The notes under the pieces are model-generated. The model ran no database searches. It saw only the letters and a list, made by a program, of their open reading frames with translations, and was not told the origin of the DNA. Position numbers and translations under genes: made by a program. 41,698 bases of DNA from a virus, in IMG/VR virus record IMGVR_UViG_3300045988_115336, positions 1 to 41,698 of that record. One strand, written 5' to 3'. Each line of letters opens with the position of its first letter. Position 1 is the stretch's first letter. This document shows positions 2,482 through 41,698 of the stretch, piece after piece.

Positions 2482-2829
2482 ATGTTTAAGGATTTATATA
2501 AATTTCTTAAAACTGCTGGACTAACTGTATTTTCTTTAGGGCAACAAGATAAAATTTGTACTACTCCATTTGTACTTTTTTATAACGCTGGGATAGAGGA
2601 TACAACAAGTAAAAATCTAAAAAAAGAGAGCATAGAGTTGTGGGTATTTTATCCGTTTAACGAGTATTCCAAGGTTGGTGGATATATAAAACGAGTTGAA
2701 GATACAGTAACTAAATTTGGCAAATTAAGAAAAGATTATGATAAATATGCTATTGAAATAGATAACGATATGAAAGCTTATTATACTAAGCTTACGTATT
2801 ACAGATATGTACAAAGGAGGTTGAGATAA
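2482..2829 (+). CDS. Tail completion or neck protein (hypothetical)
   Basis: Synteny, just upstream of the major tail gene. Confidence 0.45.
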   Translation: MFKDLYKFLKTAGLTVFSLGQQDKICTTPFVLFYNAGIEDTTSKNLKKESIELWVFYPFNEYSKVGGYIKRVEDTVTKFGKLRKDYDKYAIEIDNDMKAYYTKLTYYRYVQRRLR

Positions 2830-3389
2830 TGGCAACAGAGGTAACACTTAACCAACATGCACTTTCAGATGTGGCATGTGTAGAAATAGTTACAGAAGAT
2901 GAAAAAAGTTATACATTTGAAACTGCTTCAGAAGTAGGGATAGAAGAAGTGCTAGACGAAGGCGATGAACAAACTTTAAAAATAAAAAATGTATTATATG
3001 CGAATAGAAAAGCAGAAGATACATTATTAGGACACGATTTAACATTTACAGATAATCTTATGTGTCCTGAATTATTGGAGTTATTCCAAGGTGGTACGTT
3101 GACACCAGGGGAAGGTGGTAAATTCACATATACACCTCCAGCAATAGGGACAAAAGCAACTAAAAAGAAATTTACATGCAATATATATACTTGCGAAGTA
3201 TCAACAGATGGAGATACTGGAAAATATATAAAAGTATCTTATCCAAGTTGTGAGGGAACTAGCGTACCTTTTACGTTTAAAGATGGGGAATATTACACTA
3301 ATGAATATGTAATAAAATCTAGACCAGCTAAAAATGCAGCGCCTTATACAGCTTCTTTAGTAGATGCATTACCGACAACTGCTGTATAA
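2829..3389 (+). CDS. Major tail protein
   Basis: 186 aa. It lies immediately before the chaperone pair and tape measure, and is followed by an attenuator-type hairpin. Confidence 0.65.
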   Translation: MATEVTLNQHALSDVACVEIVTEDEKSYTFETASEVGIEEVLDEGDEQTLKIKNVLYANRKAEDTLLGHDLTFTDNLMCPELLELFQGGTLTPGEGGKFTYTPPAIGTKATKKKFTCNIYTCEVSTDGDTGKYIKVSYPSCEGTSVPFTFKDGEYYTNEYVIKSRPAKNAAPYTASLVDALPTTAV

Positions 3390-3411
3390 TAAAATATAAC
3401 AAATAGATTTT

Positions 3412-3445
3412 AGCCTTCCTAATTAACTTTAGGAGGGCTTTTATT
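3412..3445 (+). terminator. Rho-independent terminator or attenuator after the major tail gene
   Basis: AGCCTTCCTAA / TTAGGAGGGCT forms an 11-bp stem with one G.U pair and a 6-nt loop, followed by TTTATT. Confidence 0.6.
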
Positions 3446-3462
3446 ATGAAAGGAAATAGATA

Positions 3463-3912
3463 ATGGAAAATTTACAAGTAACAAGTTTAGAACAGTTAAA
3501 AAAAGTAAAACAAACCGATATAGTTAATTTAGGAAAATTTGAAGATGGAACAGAGTTTATAGCAGAGCTAAAAAGACCAGATGTGATGGCTTTAGCAGTT
3601 GAAGGTAAAATACCTAATACCCTTTTAACAGAAGTAACTAAGCTATTTAACGGCAAAAATAAACTAGCTAGTAAGGTATTGGAAAATAACGGAGATGCTT
3701 TTATACAGTTAGGGCAATTAATGGATATTTTAGCTAAAGCATCTTTAGTAAATCCGACAATGAAACAGTTGGATGAAATAAATGTGACTCTGACTCAAGA
3801 AATGAAAACAGCAATAATGATGTATTTCCAAAGTGGGGTTGAAGGATTAAAAAACTTTCGTAAAGAGCAAGAACGTATTGCGAATAATCAACCAAGCGCT
3901 GAAATTCAATAG
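3463..3912 (+). CDS. Tail assembly chaperone (gpG analogue)
   Basis: 149-aa acidic protein directly upstream of the tape measure. The next ORF overlaps it in another frame. Confidence 0.65.
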   Translation: MENLQVTSLEQLKKVKQTDIVNLGKFEDGTEFIAELKRPDVMALAVEGKIPNTLLTEVTKLFNGKNKLASKVLENNGDAFIQLGQLMDILAKASLVNPTMKQLDEINVTLTQEMKTAIMMYFQSGVEGLKNFRKEQERIANNQPSAEIQ

Positions 3913-4102
3913 ATTGCCTAGTGAAATTTTAAGGATAAAAGACGAATATGTGGCTTTTTGTTTTGATGAAGCTTGCTATTACATAATCAATCAAATGGAA
4001 AATAAGAAGAAACCTCATTTCTTTGATGAAGTAAGTGAAGATAAAAATAAGTATTATCTAAATGATTTCCTTCGAAAAGAAGCATTGAAAGGAGGATTTT
4101 AG
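3878..4102 (+). CDS. Tail chaperone extension (gpT analogue), probably made as a frameshift fusion
   Basis: This frame is open from 3851. There is only a TTG with no convincing RBS, and it overlaps the chaperone ORF by 62 nt. Confidence 0.45.
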   Translation: MRIINQALKFNRLPSEILRIKDEYVAFCFDEACYYIINQMENKKKPHFFDEVSEDKNKYYLNDFLRKEALKGGF

Positions 4103-4152
4103 AAGATAAATGTCGAATAATACAATTAAGTTAAAAGGAGGTCATTATCTAT

Positions 4153-4938
4153 ATGAGAGAAATTTGGAAAAATATAAAAGGGTACGAAGGAAAATATATG
4201 GTAAGTACAGATGGAAGAGTGAAAAGTATCAATTATAAAAATTCAAGTAGCCCTAACATATTAAAACAAGGCTTAGATAAATATGGATATAAACAATTAA
4301 CTCTTTATTCAAATGGGAGTAAGAAAACATTTAAAGTACATAGACTAGTAGCAGAAACATTTTTAGAAAATCCTAAAAATTTACCTCAAATTAATCATAA
4401 AGATGAAAACAAACAAAATAACAAAGTAGAAAATTTAGAATTTTGCTCAGCTTCATACAATATAAATTATGGAACTAGAAATAAAAAAACATCGGAAAAG
4501 TTAAAAGTAATAAGAAAAACTACAAGCCCTGTAAGTGGAGAAAATAATCCTATGTATGGCAAGCATCATACAGATGAGACCAAAAGGAAAATAAGTGAAG
4601 CACGCAAGGGTAAATACGCAGGGAAAAACAACCCTATGTATGGCAAACATAGGAGTGATGAAGTTAAAGAAAAACTCAGTAAAGCAAATAAAGGCAAGAA
4701 ATTACCAAAAGAAACTAAAAAGAAAATAAGCGAAGCTAATAAAGGGGAAAAACATCCTCAAGCTAAAAAAGTTATCTGCATAACAACAGGAGAAATATTT
4801 AATTATATAAAAGAGGCAACACAAAAATATAATATAGATAATTCAAGTATTACAAAATGCTGTAAAGGGAAAAGAAAATCAAGTGGCAAACATCCTATAA
4901 CAGGTGAAAAACTTGAATGGGGTTATTATGTTGAATAA
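4153..4938 (+). CDS. Free-standing HNH homing endonuclease (NUMOD4-like N-terminus, HNH_3-like core, repeated NUMOD-type helices)
   Basis: WKNIKGYEGKYMVSTDGRV, HRLVAETF...INHKDENKQNN, and repeats of GxNNPMYGKH..E.K.K.S. It has an AGGAGG RBS. Confidence 0.8.
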   Translation: MREIWKNIKGYEGKYMVSTDGRVKSINYKNSSSPNILKQGLDKYGYKQLTLYSNGSKKTFKVHRLVAETFLENPKNLPQINHKDENKQNNKVENLEFCSASYNINYGTRNKKTSEKLKVIRKTTSPVSGENNPMYGKHHTDETKRKISEARKGKYAGKNNPMYGKHRSDEVKEKLSKANKGKKLPKETKKKISEANKGEKHPQAKKVICITTGEIFNYIKEATQKYNIDNSSITKCCKGKRKSSGKHPITGEKLEWGYYVE

Positions 4939-29051: not shown

Positions 29052-29419
29052 ATGAACGAAATTTGGAGAAAGATAGAAGAATTTAAAAACTACGAAGTTA
29101 GTAACTTAGGGAATGTAAGAAGTTTAAATTATAGACGAACTGGAGAAACTAAAATACTCAAACTAGGTAAAGATAAAAATGGATATTTATATATTTGTTT
29201 ATGGGAAAATGGTAAGCAATATTTTAAAACAGTACATAGATTAGTAGCAACTGCATTTATATCAAATCCACAGGGAAAACCTCAAATCAATCATATAAAT
29301 GGAGATAAAGAAAATAACAGAGTATCAAATCTAGAATGGTGTACAGGAAAAGAAAATTGCCAACACGCATACAATACAGGACTGCACGTAATAACAAAGG
29401 AAACTAGAAAAAAATTAAG
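29052..29419 (+). pseudogene. HNH homing endonuclease (paralogue of 4153-4938), 5' part, disrupted by an IS
   Basis: NUMOD4-like WRKIEEFKNYEVSNLGNVRS and HRLVATAF...INHINGDKENN. The frame runs into the IS and stops at 29433-35. Confidence 0.85.
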
Positions 29420-29564
29420 GGGTATGAAACTATAACTGTGGATTAATAAGAAAACGTACTTTGACAAGTGAATATGAAATTTATTACTTAAAATAACTTT
29501 AACTGTGGACTATATAACTTTGAATGTGGTATAATAAGGTAAATATATTTTAAGGAGGGATACT

Positions 29565-29819
29565 ATGGATAAATTAGAATTTCTAAGCGATGAATATTTG
29601 ATGGAAAAATATGAATTTACAAAAAATGCTTTTAAAGAAATAACAAATAAAATCAGGAGTATAATTAATCAACCAGAGATACATTTGTTATTTAAAATAG
29701 CTGCAGATAAAGAATTAAATCATTATTCCTATATGTATGAAAGCGTTAAAACTAAAAGATTAAAGAAAAAATATAAAAATAAATTCGACAAAAGATTAAA
29801 TGAAATAAAGGAAAAATAG
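29565..29819 (+). CDS. IS-internal accessory ORF (84 aa, hypothetical)
   Basis: AAGGAGGG RBS; upstream of the transposase and within the IS boundaries. Confidence 0.5.
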   Translation: MDKLEFLSDEYLMEKYEFTKNAFKEITNKIRSIINQPEIHLLFKIAADKELNHYSYMYESVKTKRLKKKYKNKFDKRLNEIKEK

Positions 29820-29824
29820 ACAAC

Positions 29825-31138
29825 ATGAATATACTAAATTTACCAGAATTTGAAGTTTTAGACACAATACAAGATGACCATGATATGACGGTAATAGTAA
29901 AACCAGTTAAAGAGCCTGTGGCTTGCCCAGAATGTGGTGGAGTTGAATATTATAAGCATGGCAAATCTAAACGATTTGTAAGGGATTTAAATAGCTTTGG
30001 GAAACGTGTAGGGATTGAAATACATACACACAGATATAAATGTCGATATTGCGATACTACATTTAGTCAGCATTATAAAAGTATCGACGATAGAGATAAA
30101 ATCACTATTCGTTTAAGGGAGCAAATAGAAAAAGAATCCCTTAAAAAACCATTTGCTAATATAGCAGAGGAATATAGTGTTTCTCCTACTACAGTAAAGC
30201 GAATATTTAATGCCTACATAGAAAGGCTAGAAAAGGATATGACCTTCCTTACTCCAGTTATATTAGGAATAGACGAGGCACATCTTAATAAAAGCATGAG
30301 AGCCGTTTACACCGATATAATTGGACGTAAGGTATTGGATATCCAGCCAAGCCGTAAGAAATCTGATGTAAAGGCTTTTCTAGGCAAATTGCCTAACAAG
30401 GAGAACATAGAAGTAGTAACTATAGATATGTGGAGATACTACAAAGAGGCAGTCTATGAGGAGTTGCCAAAAGCTCAGGTAATAGTTGACAGATTCCATG
30501 TAATACAATTAGTTAATAATGCTTTAGAAGGTGAGAGAAAGTCATTTAAAGGTTCTCTAGACAGAAAGCAAAGGTCTAAGCTGTTAAAGGATAGATTCTT
30601 GCTATTAAGGAATAAGGAAGATTTAGAACCTAAACAGATTTGGGATATGCAGCTAATGTTTCTAGATTTTCCACAGTTAAAGTTAGCCTATGAGTTAAAA
30701 GAACAATTTAGGGATATCTATAAACATGATAATCGAGAAGATGCTTTAAAGGCTTATGAGGACTGGAAAAAAGCAGTTCCAAAGGATATGAAATACTACC
30801 AAGATGTAATCAAAACAGTTGATAACTGGCAGTATGAGATATTTAATTACTTTACATGTAGAATTACAAATGCTTATACAGAGAGTTTAAACAACTTGAT
30901 TAAGAACATCGAGAAAGCTGGTAGAGGTTACTCTTTCGAGGTGCTTAGAGCAAAGGTATTATTCGGCACATCAGCTACTAGAAAACCTAAATATACAAGA
31001 GCAAATACAAGTAACAAAACATATACATTTACTACGGCATTTAGTTGGAATGATTTCGTAGGAAGTACAAAATTAACAGAAGGTTTTGGGGTAGATATTC
31101 CACAACTACTAGAGGTATTAGAGAGTGATAAATTTTAA
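29825..31138 (+). CDS. ISL3-family transposase
   Basis: N-terminal zinc finger (CPECGG...YKCRYC), an HTH segment and a DDE region (GIDE...DMW...RITNAYTESLN). Confidence 0.85.
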   Translation: MNILNLPEFEVLDTIQDDHDMTVIVKPVKEPVACPECGGVEYYKHGKSKRFVRDLNSFGKRVGIEIHTHRYKCRYCDTTFSQHYKSIDDRDKITIRLREQIEKESLKKPFANIAEEYSVSPTTVKRIFNAYIERLEKDMTFLTPVILGIDEAHLNKSMRAVYTDIIGRKVLDIQPSRKKSDVKAFLGKLPNKENIEVVTIDMWRYYKEAVYEELPKAQVIVDRFHVIQLVNNALEGERKSFKGSLDRKQRSKLLKDRFLLLRNKEDLEPKQIWDMQLMFLDFPQLKLAYELKEQFRDIYKHDNREDALKAYEDWKKAVPKDMKYYQDVIKTVDNWQYEIFNYFTCRITNAYTESLNNLIKNIEKAGRGYSFEVLRAKVLFGTSATRKPKYTRANTSNKTYTFTTAFSWNDFVGSTKLTEGFGVDIPQLLEVLESDKF

Positions 31139-31186
31139 TTCACTCTCTTTTCTTTTCCACAATTAAAGTTATATACCCAAATTAAG

Positions 31187-31487
31187 TAAAGCAAATAAAG
31201 GTAAACAGTTAACAGAAGAAACTAAAAAGAAAATAAGTAAAACACTTAAAGGCAAAATGACAGGAGAAAAAAATCCGATGTATGGTATGTCAGGGGAAAA
31301 ACATCCACGAGCTAGAAAAATTAAATGTATTGCAACTGGAGAGATATTTAATTATATAAGAGAAGCTGCGAAAAAATATAATATCGACAGCTCAAGTATA
31401 TCGGCATGTTGCAGAGGGAAACAAAAATCAGCTGGTAAGCATCCGATAACAGGCGAAAAGCTAGTATGGGAATATGCAGAAAAATAA
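31187..31487 (+). pseudogene. HNH homing endonuclease, 3' part (continuation of 29052-29419 once the IS and one TSD copy are removed)
   Basis: SKANKGKQLTEETKKKIS...CIATGEIFNYIREAAKKYNIDSSSISACCRGK parallels the C-terminus of 4153-4938. The restored ORF is 669 nt, in frame. Confidence 0.85.
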
Positions 31488-31508
31488 TTTTACAAAAGGG
31501 GGATAATC

Positions 31509-32057
31509 ATGGCAAATAAACCAATAACAGATTTAGAAAAATGTAAGATAAAAGAATTGTACGAAAAAGGTTATAGTATCCTACGAATAGCAAACGAAAT
31601 AGGCAGAAGTGACGGTACTGTTAAAAAATATGTACAGGAAATGAAACTTGTAAAACCTGCTAAACCTACTATAGTAGGTGAAAGATACGGAAGATTAACT
31701 GTGTTAGAACTAGATCATGTGGAAAAAAGCAGAAGATATTGGAAATGCAGTTGTAGCTGTGGAGGGACTACAGTAGTAAGAGAAGGCAATTTAAAAAACG
31801 GCATAACTAAAAGTTGTGGATGTTTAAGAAAAGAACATGTAGAACGTCAGAAACTTGATATAAAACCAGTTGAACCAAAGAATAACCAAGGTGGTGTATA
31901 TTATTTCCAACCAGGTGACATAGTCTTAAAAGGCAATTATGAAGTAGAAGGATATAAAAGAGGAGGAGAAGTAAAAGAATTCAAAATGTCGCCTGAGGAA
32001 TTAAAGAAATACCTAAAAGAGCTTGAAACGAAAGAAGTAAAAAGAAGGGGAGAATAG
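31509..32057 (+). CDS. HTH DNA-binding protein with a Cys-cluster domain (hypothetical)
   Basis: N-terminal HTH (GYSILRIANEIGRSDGTVKKYV), then YGRLTVLE...WKCSCSCGG...SCGC. Confidence 0.5.
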   Translation: MANKPITDLEKCKIKELYEKGYSILRIANEIGRSDGTVKKYVQEMKLVKPAKPTIVGERYGRLTVLELDHVEKSRRYWKCSCSCGGTTVVREGNLKNGITKSCGCLRKEHVERQKLDIKPVEPKNNQGGVYYFQPGDIVLKGNYEVEGYKRGGEVKEFKMSPEELKKYLKELETKEVKRRGE

Positions 32058-32058
32058 T

Positions 32059-32481
32059 ATGGAACAAAATTTAATTATAGCTAAAAATATAAAAACTGGG
32101 GAAACGTTAGAATTTGCAAGCCAAAAAGAAGCAGCGGATTATCTTACAGATGTATATGGCAAAAAAATATACATAAGCAGTGTGGCTGCGATTATAAAAC
32201 AAGACGTGCCATACAAAAAGACATGGGAAATTAATTATATTAAAGAAAATAGCAATGTAAAAGTATGCGAATGCTGTAAAAAGGAATACAAAACAAATAG
32301 AAAAAAACAAAGATTTTGCAGTTTTGAGTGTAGAGAAAATTACTATAATGCACAAAGAGTAGCAAAAAATCCAAAAACATCAAGATGTAAGATCGAAAAA
32401 AAGAAAGAGAAAGAACTAATACATAAGTTATATGTAATGCTAACACCATACAGAACAAAGGAAGCTAAGGAAGATGCGTAG
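32059..32481 (+). CDS. Hypothetical protein: endonuclease-associated DNA-binding-like N-terminus plus one Cys4 module like those of the intron HNH ORFs
   Basis: NIKTGETLEFASQKEAADYL..., and CECCKKEYKTNRKKQRFCSFEC resembles CQCCNKEY...YCSKEC at 41417 onward. Confidence 0.5.
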   Translation: MEQNLIIAKNIKTGETLEFASQKEAADYLTDVYGKKIYISSVAAIIKQDVPYKKTWEINYIKENSNVKVCECCKKEYKTNRKKQRFCSFECRENYYNAQRVAKNPKTSRCKIEKKKEKELIHKLYVMLTPYRTKEAKEDA

Positions 32482-40734: not shown

Positions 40735-40894
40735 ATGTCAACAACAAAAATTGCAGATTTAATAAATCCAGAAGTAATGGCAGATATGATTTCAGCCAAA
40801 ATAGAAAAAAAATTAGTGGTTACACCATTTGCTAAAATAGATACTACATTAGTAGGGCAACCAGGAAATACTATAACAGTTCCACAATATGCGT
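40735..40894 (+). CDS. Major capsid protein, exon 1
   Basis: AGGAAGGTGA RBS. It encodes MSTTKIADLINPEVMADMI...GQPGNTITVPQYA, a conserved capsid N-terminus, and the frame hits TAA right after this point. Confidence 0.85.
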
Positions 40895-41172
40895 AAAAAT
40901 ATGCGCCTTTACATAGTGATATGTATTGCAAACCCTTTTAATTGCTGGAAACTCCTAAAGAGTTCATCTCACTTTAGGACAATCAGCAGCGAAGATTCAT
41001 TAAATATATATTTAATGAATAACGTTCAACGACTAGCCGAAAGGCGTACACCCAAGTGGGTGGAAATGGAGGGCAACTCAAGGAGTTGATGATATAGTCT
41101 AATCTATATAGTAATATATAGCAGTTCATAAGAGAACGATACAAGATTAACGACCTTGTATGAATGTAAATG
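40895..41172 (+). mobile_element. Group I intron MCP-i1 (278 nt, ORF-less)
   Basis: GCGU/GCGC forms P1 with a U.G pair. ACGACUA ... AUAGUC forms a P7-like pair. There are several hairpins, GNRA loops and a terminal G. Joining the exons gives PQYA|YIGDAVDVAEG. Confidence 0.85.
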
Positions 41173-41275
41173 ATATAGGAGATGCAGTAGATGTAGCAGA
41201 AGGTGTTGCAGCAGAAACAGTAAAATTAACTACTACTTCAACAACTGCTACAGTAAAAAAAGCTATGAAAGCGGT
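41173..41275 (+). CDS. Major capsid protein, exon 2
   Basis: It encodes (Y)IGDAVDVAEGVAAETVKLTTTSTTATVKKAMKAV. It has no start codon, and the frame is restored only by splicing on both sides. Confidence 0.8.
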
Positions 41276-41698
41276 AAATTAATTCTGCCGTCTTCTTTAG
41301 AAATAAAGAAGTAATAAATTAACCAAAATCGGTAAAGGCTAAATATTTTATTATTTATGAAATTGAATTAACGGACTAAGCACTCAATATGTTATAATAT
41401 TATTGAGGTGATTAAGTTGAAAAAAATATGTCAATGTTGTAATAAAGAGTATAATGCAAAACGAAGTTCTTCAAAATATTGTTCTAAAGAATGTCAAATA
41501 AAAGCTAGAACGAAAAAAGTTAAAGTACAATGTAGCTATTGTAAAAAAGAAATAGAACGTAAAGCTTGTCATATGAAATACGAAAAGCACTTCTGTAATA
41601 ATGAATGTAGAGGTAAATGGATGAGTGAAAATTTAGTAGCAGAAAACCATCCTAAATATATAAGAAAAACTGTAAAATGTGATTATTGTGGAAAAAAA
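41276..41698 (+). mobile_element. 5' portion of group-I-type intron MCP-i2 (continues at base 56 on the circle)
   Basis: The 5' splice site follows U41275, and GCGGU pairs with GCCGU at 41287-91. It contains the start of the HNH ORF. Confidence 0.8.
41417..41698 (+). CDS. Intron-encoded HNH endonuclease, N-terminal part (runs off the window; continues at 56..520)
   Basis: TTG start 6 nt after GAGGTG. MKKICQCCNKEY... has Cys4 modules homologous to 5569-6402. There is no stop codon before the window end. Confidence 0.8.
   Translation, partial: MKKICQCCNKEYNAKRSSSKYCSKECQIKARTKKVKVQCSYCKKEIERKACHMKYEKHFCNNECRGKWMSENLVAENHPKYIRKTVKCDYCGKK

Follow-up and report, generated by a model that had tools for sequence, protein, structure and literature searches.

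Insertion sequences (IS) of the ISL3 family, such as ISL3, IS31831, IS1411 and ISPst9, encode a transposase with a DDE_Tnp_ISL3 domain, a zinc ribbon and a helix-turn-helix (HTH) domain, are bounded by inverted repeats of about 23 bp and duplicate 8 bp of A/T-rich target DNA. The imperfect terminal inverted repeats of the family span about 15–40 bp in ISfinder, and IS that carry passenger genes are called "transporter IS" (tIS) in ISfinder usage. Here we describe an element with these traits in IMG/VR virus record IMGVR_UViG_3300045988_115336, a DNA stretch of 41,698 nucleotides that we refer to as the window. The element occupies positions 29420–31178, and we are confident that it is an intact and probably transposition-competent ISL3 transporter IS, inserted in a homing-endonuclease gene of a temperate siphophage. 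Its lineage departs from the common ISL3 plan in living mainly in phages and in having an additional passenger slot, which lies close to the promoter and upstream of the transposase gene.

Passenger genes as such have precedents in the family, ISPpu12 being an ISL3-family IS that carries them (bioRxiv 10.1101/2023.06.07.543989). Like the window element, such tIS hold passenger open reading frames (ORFs) between the inverted repeats and beside the transposase gene, whereas the lineage described here has a single, sharply bounded slot past a conserved promoter, more than 20 ORF sets and derivatives that lack the transposase. Mycobacteriophage mobile elements (MPME) are small, have inverted repeats and show polymorphism from one phage genome to the next. 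The same holds for the vMITEs (bioRxiv 10.1101/2024.01.18.576219), and the 535–843-bp derivatives of our family are likewise nonautonomous; unlike vMITEs, they derive by deletion from a known ISL3 partner and carry a promoter and a coding cargo gene. Integron gene cassettes in phage genomes (PMC9892861) resemble the slot in combining a fixed promoter with exchangeable promoterless ORFs, but the window element has neither integrase nor attC, its sole enzyme being the DDE transposase; exchange is best accounted for by homologous recombination among copies of the IS, and it is DDE transposition that moves the unit as a whole.

ISL3 transposase genes occur in 60 GenBank phage records, the closest (63% identity) in the Clostridioides difficile phages phiCD211, phiCDIF1296T and LIBA6276. 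In these, a passenger ORF ("exodeoxyribonuclease X") and a homologous repeat/−10 region precede the transposase; the cargo is different, and terminal repeats are not recognisable by eye. The element is annotated only as "transposase", not as an IS, and the literature mentions "multiple transposases" (PMC5786514). In phiCD211 (NC_029048.2, about 62380–64632; locus L082, 1560–3811), "Exodeoxyribonuclease X" and tnpA form a promoter–cargo–transposase unit like that of the window family.

Anatomy of the IS and its transposase

A sequence-only reading of the window had proposed an ISL3-family IS with intact inverted repeats and an 8-bp target duplication. Our analysis bears this out: the ends, the transposase domains and the duplication are all in place (Table 1), the element measures 1,759 bp between identical 8-bp flanks, and the left inverted repeat (IRL) agrees with the reverse complement of the right one (IRR) at 19 of 23 positions. 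Both ORFs of that reading, of 84 and 437 aa, were found, as was its internal TGgTATAAT promoter-like site, which we saw with TGGACT 18 nt upstream. The subterminal copies of AA(C/T)TGTGG that it listed are exact at 29434 and 29501 on the + strand and at 31157 on the − strand, but the copy at 29522 (GAATGTGG) departs from the motif by one base; at the equivalent position some relatives have AATTGTGG or AACTGTGG, and others deviate too. A further exact copy lies at 30671 on the − strand, and just two more are found in the remaining 39.9 kb. The second subterminal repeat directly adjoins the −10 box. The gap between passenger ORF and transposase gene is only 5 nt, and no terminator-like site was found there.

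The 437-aa protein matches DDE_Tnp_ISL3 (PF01610) over profile positions 1–239 of 240 (E-value 6.8e-63), as well as Zn_ribbon_ISL3 (PF14690, 4.5e-12) and HTH_Tnp_ISL3 (PF13542, 1.8e-09); the domains, the terminal inverted repeats and the 8-bp duplication typical of ISL3 elements are present together. Alignment with 14 diverse homologues showed the zinc-ribbon residues C34, C37, C73 and C76 to be invariant and D150, D201, D222, E338 and E353 to be conserved acidic residues, which are candidates for the catalytic positions. The nearest annotated proteins are 63% identical, and the one named by source is an "ISL3 family transposase" of C. difficile. Compared with the window copy, 22 distinct copies of the transposase gene gave dS of 0.17–0.45 and dN/dS of 0.03–0.09; judged by these ratios, the gene is under strong purifying selection across the copies.

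We also reproduced the claim that removing the IS together with one copy of the duplication restores the interrupted gene: its two parts (Table 1) join in frame to an ORF of 669 nt, encoding 222 aa plus the stop. The insertion target is an A/T-rich, lysine-codon stretch of a free-standing NUMOD4/HNH_3/NUMOD3 gene. Considered by itself, this one insertion is an ordinary IS event, and what makes it interesting is the family to which the element belongs.

Table 1. Features of the IS and of the interrupted endonuclease gene in the window
Feature	Position	Strand	Details
Endonuclease gene, 5' part	29052–29419	+	codons 1–122; NUMOD4 and HNH_3
Target-site duplication, left copy	29412–29419		8 bp, AAATTAAG
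Complete IS	29420–31178		1,759 bp between target duplications
IRL	29420–29442	+	23 bp, GGGTATGAAACTATAACTGTGGA
Subterminal direct repeat of inner inverted-repeat motif, first	29493–29509	+	ATAACTTTAACTGTGGA
Promoter-like site	29506–29535	+	TGGACT, 18 nt, TG-extended TATAAT; TGG-TATAAT at 29527–29535; 10/12 matches
Subterminal direct repeat of inner inverted-repeat motif, second	29514–29529	+	ATAACTTTGAATGTGG
Passenger ORF in cargo slot	29565–29819	+	84 aa; ribosome-binding site AAGGAGG at 29552–29558
Transposase gene	29825–31138	+	437 aa; zinc ribbon, HTH, DDE_Tnp_ISL3
Internal IRR-like copy of inner IRR sequence	30667–30685	+	TTTTCCACAGTTAAAGTTA; within transposase gene
IRR	31156–31178	−	23 bp; + strand TCCACAATTAAAGTTATATACCC, reverse complement GGGTATATAACTTTAATTGTGGA
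Target-site duplication, right copy	31179–31186		8 bp, AAATTAAG
Endonuclease gene, 3' part	31187–31487	+	NUMOD3-type repeats and I-HmuI-like C-terminal DNA-binding region; stop 31485–31487

Family architecture, cargo and habitat

To find relatives, we used a degenerate 23-nt inverted-repeat pattern (GGGTATRWAACTWTAAYTGTGGA) and required exact matches. The pattern occurred in 61 stretches on 48 IMG/VR viral contigs, in at least 80 stretches of JGI/ENA metagenome records (human gut, bioreactor, fermentation and sediment) and in a single stretch among one genome each of 185,579 species (596 Gb). The loci first examined held 32 complete elements, and the final count was 42 unique insertion sites. 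Across these sites, which lie overwhelmingly in phage DNA, the transposase gene is 92–96% identical and the ends are near-identical; perfect 8-bp duplications, with an A+T content of 94%, flank the IS at 28 of the 42. The empty site of the other 1,759-bp copy (L024) was not found. For two relatives, empty counterparts of the insertion site were seen in other viral contigs: the flanks overlap by exactly 8 bp, and the IS plus 8 bp is precisely what the filled site has in addition to the empty one. These pairs demonstrate insertion polymorphism, and the family moves.

In 19 aligned elements, the first ~116 bp, comprising IRL, two further copies of the inner inverted-repeat motif and the −10 box, are near-invariant, and IRL is the same in all of them save L073, which has an internal left-end deletion. 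The promoter is conserved across the family, the sequences diverge completely 2–20 nt past the −10 box, and they converge again at the start of the transposase gene to remain conserved through to IRR. No repeat bounds the cargo besides the conserved left end and the transposase gene start. The variable slot in between holds more than 20 unrelated ORF sets across the family. Cargo proteins with recognisable domains include a two-domain Tad2-like protein (PF11195, 1.2e-26) and proteins with YopX, Nuc_deoxyri_tr2 (nucleoside 2-deoxyribosyltransferase-like), PAPS_reduct, HTH_3 (XRE-type) and HTH_17 (excisionase-type) domains, and several acidic slot proteins belong to no known family. As relatives with unrelated cargo have perfect duplications, the identity of the cargo is dispensable for movement; a passenger gene that lies between the inverted repeats and is not needed for movement is what defines a transporter IS.

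The short derivatives have lost most of the transposase gene and kept the promoter and the cargo. Several of them nevertheless have perfect duplications, which argues that they were mobilised in trans. One such mini-element of 633 bp (L141/L158) is 97–98% identical to the window element minus its positions 456–1573. The mini-elements resemble MITEs (miniature inverted-repeat transposable elements) except that they are not non-coding, each holding a promoter and an ORF of 84–156 aa.

The 84-aa passenger ORF of the window joins the opening 12 codons from an acidic 105-aa ORF to a basic 76–85-aa ORF, the two being separate in relatives. It has no Pfam match, and its family comprises 8 clusters among 5.8 billion; the three homologue clusters that we examined, one adjacent to a transposase gene and one free-standing, are from phage-like contigs. 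The protein was modelled with four helices (pLDDT 87.5), and the model had no match in PDB or BFVD (E > 1).

Most insertions of the relatives are intergenic, and the sites where removal of the IS restores an ORF are a GIY-YIG-like endonuclease, TnpB and two small ORFs (L059, L061). The sequence-only reading had stressed that the IS hit another selfish gene. The insertion does lie in a homing-endonuclease gene, but the mostly intergenic insertions of relatives make targeting unlikely, and the hit is best read as survivorship in a gene-dense genome combined with A-rich lysine codons. In L048 (4898–6906) and L051 (2785–4793), a phage gene for a 380-aa TnpB (IS605 OrfB-like) is interrupted by an IS relative, and three other viral contigs have this gene intact; in L010, a TnpB gene (1457–2584) lies close to the IS on a phage-like contig. 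In these cases one mobile element is nested in another.

Single viral contigs with two or three family copies or ends (L027 and IMG/VR 159441, 160785 and 150001) indicate that multi-copy states occur within one phage genome. L027 has a 735-bp YopX mini-element (65–799) and a 2,271-bp Tad2-like element (2597–4867) within 5 kb. Another contig (L155, 1–2641; ERZ808278 NODE_7189, coverage ~35) consists of one complete IS alone, which is consistent with an assembler-collapsed multi-copy repeat or with an abundant excised form.

The surroundings of the family are mostly of phage type. Among 141 ORFs flanking the IMG/VR loci, the commonest PHROG families were endolysins, portal, large terminase and anti-repressors, and among 145 ORFs flanking the unfiltered metagenome loci, the commonest Pfam families were HNH_3, amidases, DNA polymerase A, scaffold, portal and Mu-F. 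In 15 of 17 clear cases, the IS has the same orientation as the genes beside it. The lone match in the species genomes (L081, in the Clostridia metagenome-assembled genome JBKUYM010000009.1) is in a phage-like region with a primase, an HU-like protein and DNA polymerase I. There, at 2269–2733, a 128-aa ORF is driven by a solo left end in which IRL and the promoter region are fused, and both IRR and the transposase gene are missing; this left end may be a fossilised, domesticated cargo cassette. The neighbouring DNA polymerase I, of 1,094 aa, apparently contains an intein.

The phage enrichment rests on an exact 23-nt pattern, on one genome per species and on a metagenome count that is a lower bound (at least 80), and since a few of the metagenome flanking ORFs encode ABC transporters, permeases or SLH proteins, phages are not strictly its only home. 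One may therefore argue that, with the family and its slot for cargo genuine, the phage restriction is a sampling artefact, and that gut and digester Clostridia, which are poorly sampled, carry the family equally often on their chromosomes and plasmids. We regard this as unlikely: the commonest flanking families in the unfiltered metagenomes are phage-type, the identified cargo comes from families common in phages (Tad2-like, YopX, PAPS reductase), the 15:2 co-orientation is with flanking phage genes, and the closest isolate relative resides in C. difficile phage phiCD211 and its kin.

The rarity of IS in phages, with 92% of surveyed phages having none (PMC3429520), the perfect duplication and the single copy in the window would also fit a recent one-off hop of an IS from a host chromosome into a prophage, where it would be a dead-end passenger with no special relation to phages. 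This is very improbable, as the same ends and transposase recur at 42 sites, on dozens of phage contigs and in gut, bioreactor and fermentation metagenomes, whereas the 185,579 species genomes gave just one match, itself phage-like. A solitary accident would also sit poorly with an insertion shared by every contig of the lineage that we read (see below) and with the strong purifying selection on the transposase. The earlier suggestion that the phage could carry the IS between hosts holds but understates the case, since close relatives reside in dozens of different phage genomes.

The carrier phage, its lineage and the interrupted gene

The window matches metagenome contig ENA ERZ1689671 NODE_106 (41,698 bp). 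Its first and last 55 bases (1–55 and 41644–41698) are identical, an overlap that we take as the signature of a circular SPAdes assembly and that leaves a unique genome of 41,643 bp, and contigs of the same size with other rotations were found in other samples (ERZ1689671, ERZ1690048). The overlap, the rotated contigs and the phage genes together speak for a phage genome that measures ~41.6 kb and is circular or circularly permuted. The window encodes terminase, portal, Mu-F-like and scaffold proteins, RecT, a DnaC-like loader, a serine-recombinase integrase and repressor-like HTH proteins; the host DNA of the IS is a temperate siphophage of gut type with Clostridia-like relatives. Clostridium perfringens phage phiCp-D has a large terminase that shares 66% identity with the one in the window. 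Among 50,697 GenBank phage records there was no close relative, with nothing near-identical at the IS locus and short patches elsewhere.

Within this lineage, the truncated endonuclease of 127 aa is found unchanged on at least 22 contigs, and of the 24 contigs read in which the neighbouring DnaC-like protein is identical, all 24 have the gene interrupted by the IS. No contig of the lineage that we read lacks the insertion, 22–24 having been read for each of two neighbouring proteins; ERR13995695, ERR14044789 and ERR13995596 are among the runs with this lineage. The empty-site sequence, obtained by removing the IS and one duplication copy, contains AGAAAAAAATTAAGTAAAGC; an exact 29-mer across it had no match in IMG/VR viral contigs or in 241 million JGI metagenome records. 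The protein set of 5.8 billion clusters likewise held no uninterrupted endonuclease allele and no full-length protein more than 62% identical, and the intact allele that the sequence-only reading proposed to seek in related phages is thus absent from this set and from both contig collections. The same reading had called the insertion recent. The duplication is indeed perfect, but nearly all flanking DNA is equally perfect across the relatives, and in a young, nearly clonal lineage where nothing has diverged, "recent" is only relative.

Contigs that encode the identical transposase show three structural variants, two of which are deletions that begin exactly at the IRR end and leave the left junction unchanged. 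In five loci (L003, L004, L007, L014 and L018) the IRR end is joined to 31625, with loss of 31179–31624 (446 bp), which takes away the 3' part of the endonuclease gene together with the beginning of the gene that follows; in two others (L005 and L006) it is joined to 32427, with loss of 31179–32426 (1,248 bp). Two independent deletions from the last IRR base are a classic footprint of IS-adjacent deletion. They could have arisen via intramolecular transposition or via a second insertion followed by recombination between the copies, and the two routes are not separable because no two-copy intermediate was found in the fetched loci. Downstream of the IS, a 182-aa HTH_38 gene (31509–32057) is variably truncated or frameshifted in relatives (126, 133, 145 and 44 + 138 aa) and is partly or wholly lost in the IRR-adjacent deletions; it looks dispensable or decaying.

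A third deletion, in L015 and L016, has removed 30686–31206 with 5-bp microhomology (AGTTA) and took with it the transposase C-terminus, IRR and one duplication copy, which freezes the element. It begins right after the internal IRR-like copy, and the right end of L073 resembles a fusion of that internal site with the true IRR. We considered the internal site as an alternative end and rejected it, as the L015/L016 junction is 7 nt short of the equivalent terminus and the microhomology gives a simpler account.

Divergence of 4–7% within the lineage is restricted to the IS interior. L012, L015, L016 and L019 agree with the window at 100% identity in flanks, left end of the IS, 84-aa ORF and IRR but at only ~96% in the transposase gene; L018, with the same site and flanks, has an IS interior of 87–96% identity and a cargo of two ORFs (105 and 85 aa). 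The best account of these interior patches is that the IS recombined, or underwent gene conversion, with other copies that have diverged from it. As repeats of 1.8 kb exceed the k-mer size, as L155 consists of the IS alone at ~35x coverage and as some contigs end within the IS (L017, L019), one might suspect that chimeric metagenome assembly joined the IS to the phage and that the deletion variants are mis-joins at the repeat. This is highly improbable, since the left and right junctions come back unchanged in many runs and in at least five ENA assemblies, whether made with SPAdes (ENA), by Logan or with scaffolding, and since each deletion junction was seen in two to four independent runs; neither the duplication nor the in-frame restoration is expected of chimeras.

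The interrupted gene had been called a paralogue of the gene at 4153–4938, and this is upheld by the restored 222-aa protein, which is 45% identical to the paralogue and whose junction KKL/SKANKGK mirrors EKLSKANKGK there, the split falling inside a NUMOD3-type repeat. The restored protein aligns at 97–100% coverage with more than 100 single-chain homologues of 180–266 aa, of which the best full-length ones are only 60–62% identical; full-length homologues carry PF07460, PF07463 and PF13392. NUMOD4, HNH_3, NUMOD3-type repeats and the C-terminal region follow each other as in I-HmuI-like free-standing HNH endonucleases, with the I-HmuI_NUMOD-like match of the 3' part below the curated cut-off and the full domain set found in the paralogue. 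The 5' part reads on into the IS to a stop at 29435, and the resulting product keeps the catalytic domain but has lost the DNA-binding repeats and is thus, to judge from its sequence, probably inactive as a homing enzyme. That stop, and a 69-aa downstream ORF given by gene callers, would suit two naturally separate genes with an element between them, a reading to which we give next to no credence in view of the contiguous homologues, the paralogue, the single restored ORF and the split repeat, and no endonuclease homologues were seen with halves apart and no mobile element between them.

Elsewhere in the genome, the major capsid gene appears to be split across the circular junction (40735–41698 and 1–1421). 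A capsid exon from 40735 is followed by an RF00028 group I intron at 40885–41121 (112.8 bits, full model), a short exon at ~41160–41282, a second intervening stretch with an HNH_2 ORF (164–520) and the capsid remainder at ~714–1421. The non-coding positions 503–713 are 81–85% identical to DNA by "homing endonuclease" genes of Staphylococcus/Mammaliicoccus phages, with shorter near-identical patches in other phages too, and may be the 3' part of a second intron; a permissive Rfam scan of 1–1200 gave no RNA family for this conserved stretch. The phage thus holds introns, four HNH-type ORFs and an IS.

A possible gene shuttle among phages

The conserved left end suggests how such elements would work. 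The promoter would transcribe the passenger ORF and the transposase gene as one unit, the two subterminal repeats would be extra, putative transposase-binding sites, and the promoter would be autoregulated through transposase bound at the repeat beside the −10 box. Movement would proceed by copy-out/paste-in through a circle, with 8-bp staggered cuts in A/T-rich DNA; circle formation has been reported for other ISL3 members (bioRxiv 10.1101/2023.06.07.543989). Insertions in phages would persist only where they fall between genes or in dispensable selfish genes, which would explain the endonuclease target here. Homology between copies, over the 116-bp left end and the transposase gene, would let co-resident copies recombine, swap cargo and seed deletions.

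Tentatively, we see it as plausible that a phage-adapted ISL3 lineage acts as a self-mobile, promoter-equipped gene shuttle, with the promoter-bearing left end and the transposase gene as homology arms by which slot content is exchanged between copies, and with accessory or counter-defence genes (Tad2-like sponges, DNA-modification enzymes, YopX) hopping from phage to phage. Transfer would take place during coinfection or lysogeny, either with the transposase or as cargo-only mini-elements in trans. If this is true, phages would be the main reservoir and vector of the IS and not an accidental dead end.

Besides the dependence of the enrichment on the search pattern and the cellular-type flanks described above, several points weigh against our main reading of the element. 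In the sequences searched, this copy gave no direct sign of activity: its empty site was not found, no second IS copy is present in the window, junctions of a circle or tandem (IRR, 0–12 nt, IRL) were found neither in viral contigs nor in the fetched loci, and the fetched loci contained no two-copy intermediates (IRL joined to 31632 or 32434). The IRR-adjacent deletions could in principle arise without transposase, against which argues the exact IRR boundary shared by two independent deletions. The 84-aa passenger ORF may, as a deletion-fusion, be functionless, and we infer packaging of the IS-bearing genome from the circular assembly of metagenome data. More broadly, the evidence comes from metagenome assemblies (not virion DNA or reads) and exact-pattern searches, with mobility and cargo function read from sequence.

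In a full-text literature search we found no description of a predominantly phage-borne IS lineage with a bounded, promoter-driven hypervariable cargo slot and cargo-only derivatives, an absence that does not prove the lineage new. Nothing about the mechanism is out of the ordinary; it is the lineage, phage-borne and swapping its cargo, that appears to be undescribed.

According to surveys, phages tolerate IS poorly and are weak vectors for them (PMC3429520). The lineage of the window element runs contrary to this view, being kept under purifying selection and found throughout one phage lineage and in dozens of others. Its cargo position is hot-swappable and promoter-driven and holds phage-typical families, among them a protein with a Thoeris anti-defence (Tad2-like) domain. 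For mining new phage accessory genes in metagenomes, the conserved 116-bp left end gives a handle, and the IS is a candidate natural tool for delivering cargo into phages of Clostridia. If confirmed, the findings would provide a concrete route, open to testing, for the acquisition and exchange of accessory "moron" and anti-defence genes by phages, and they would show a portable patch of homology driving deletions and mosaicism in phage genomes.

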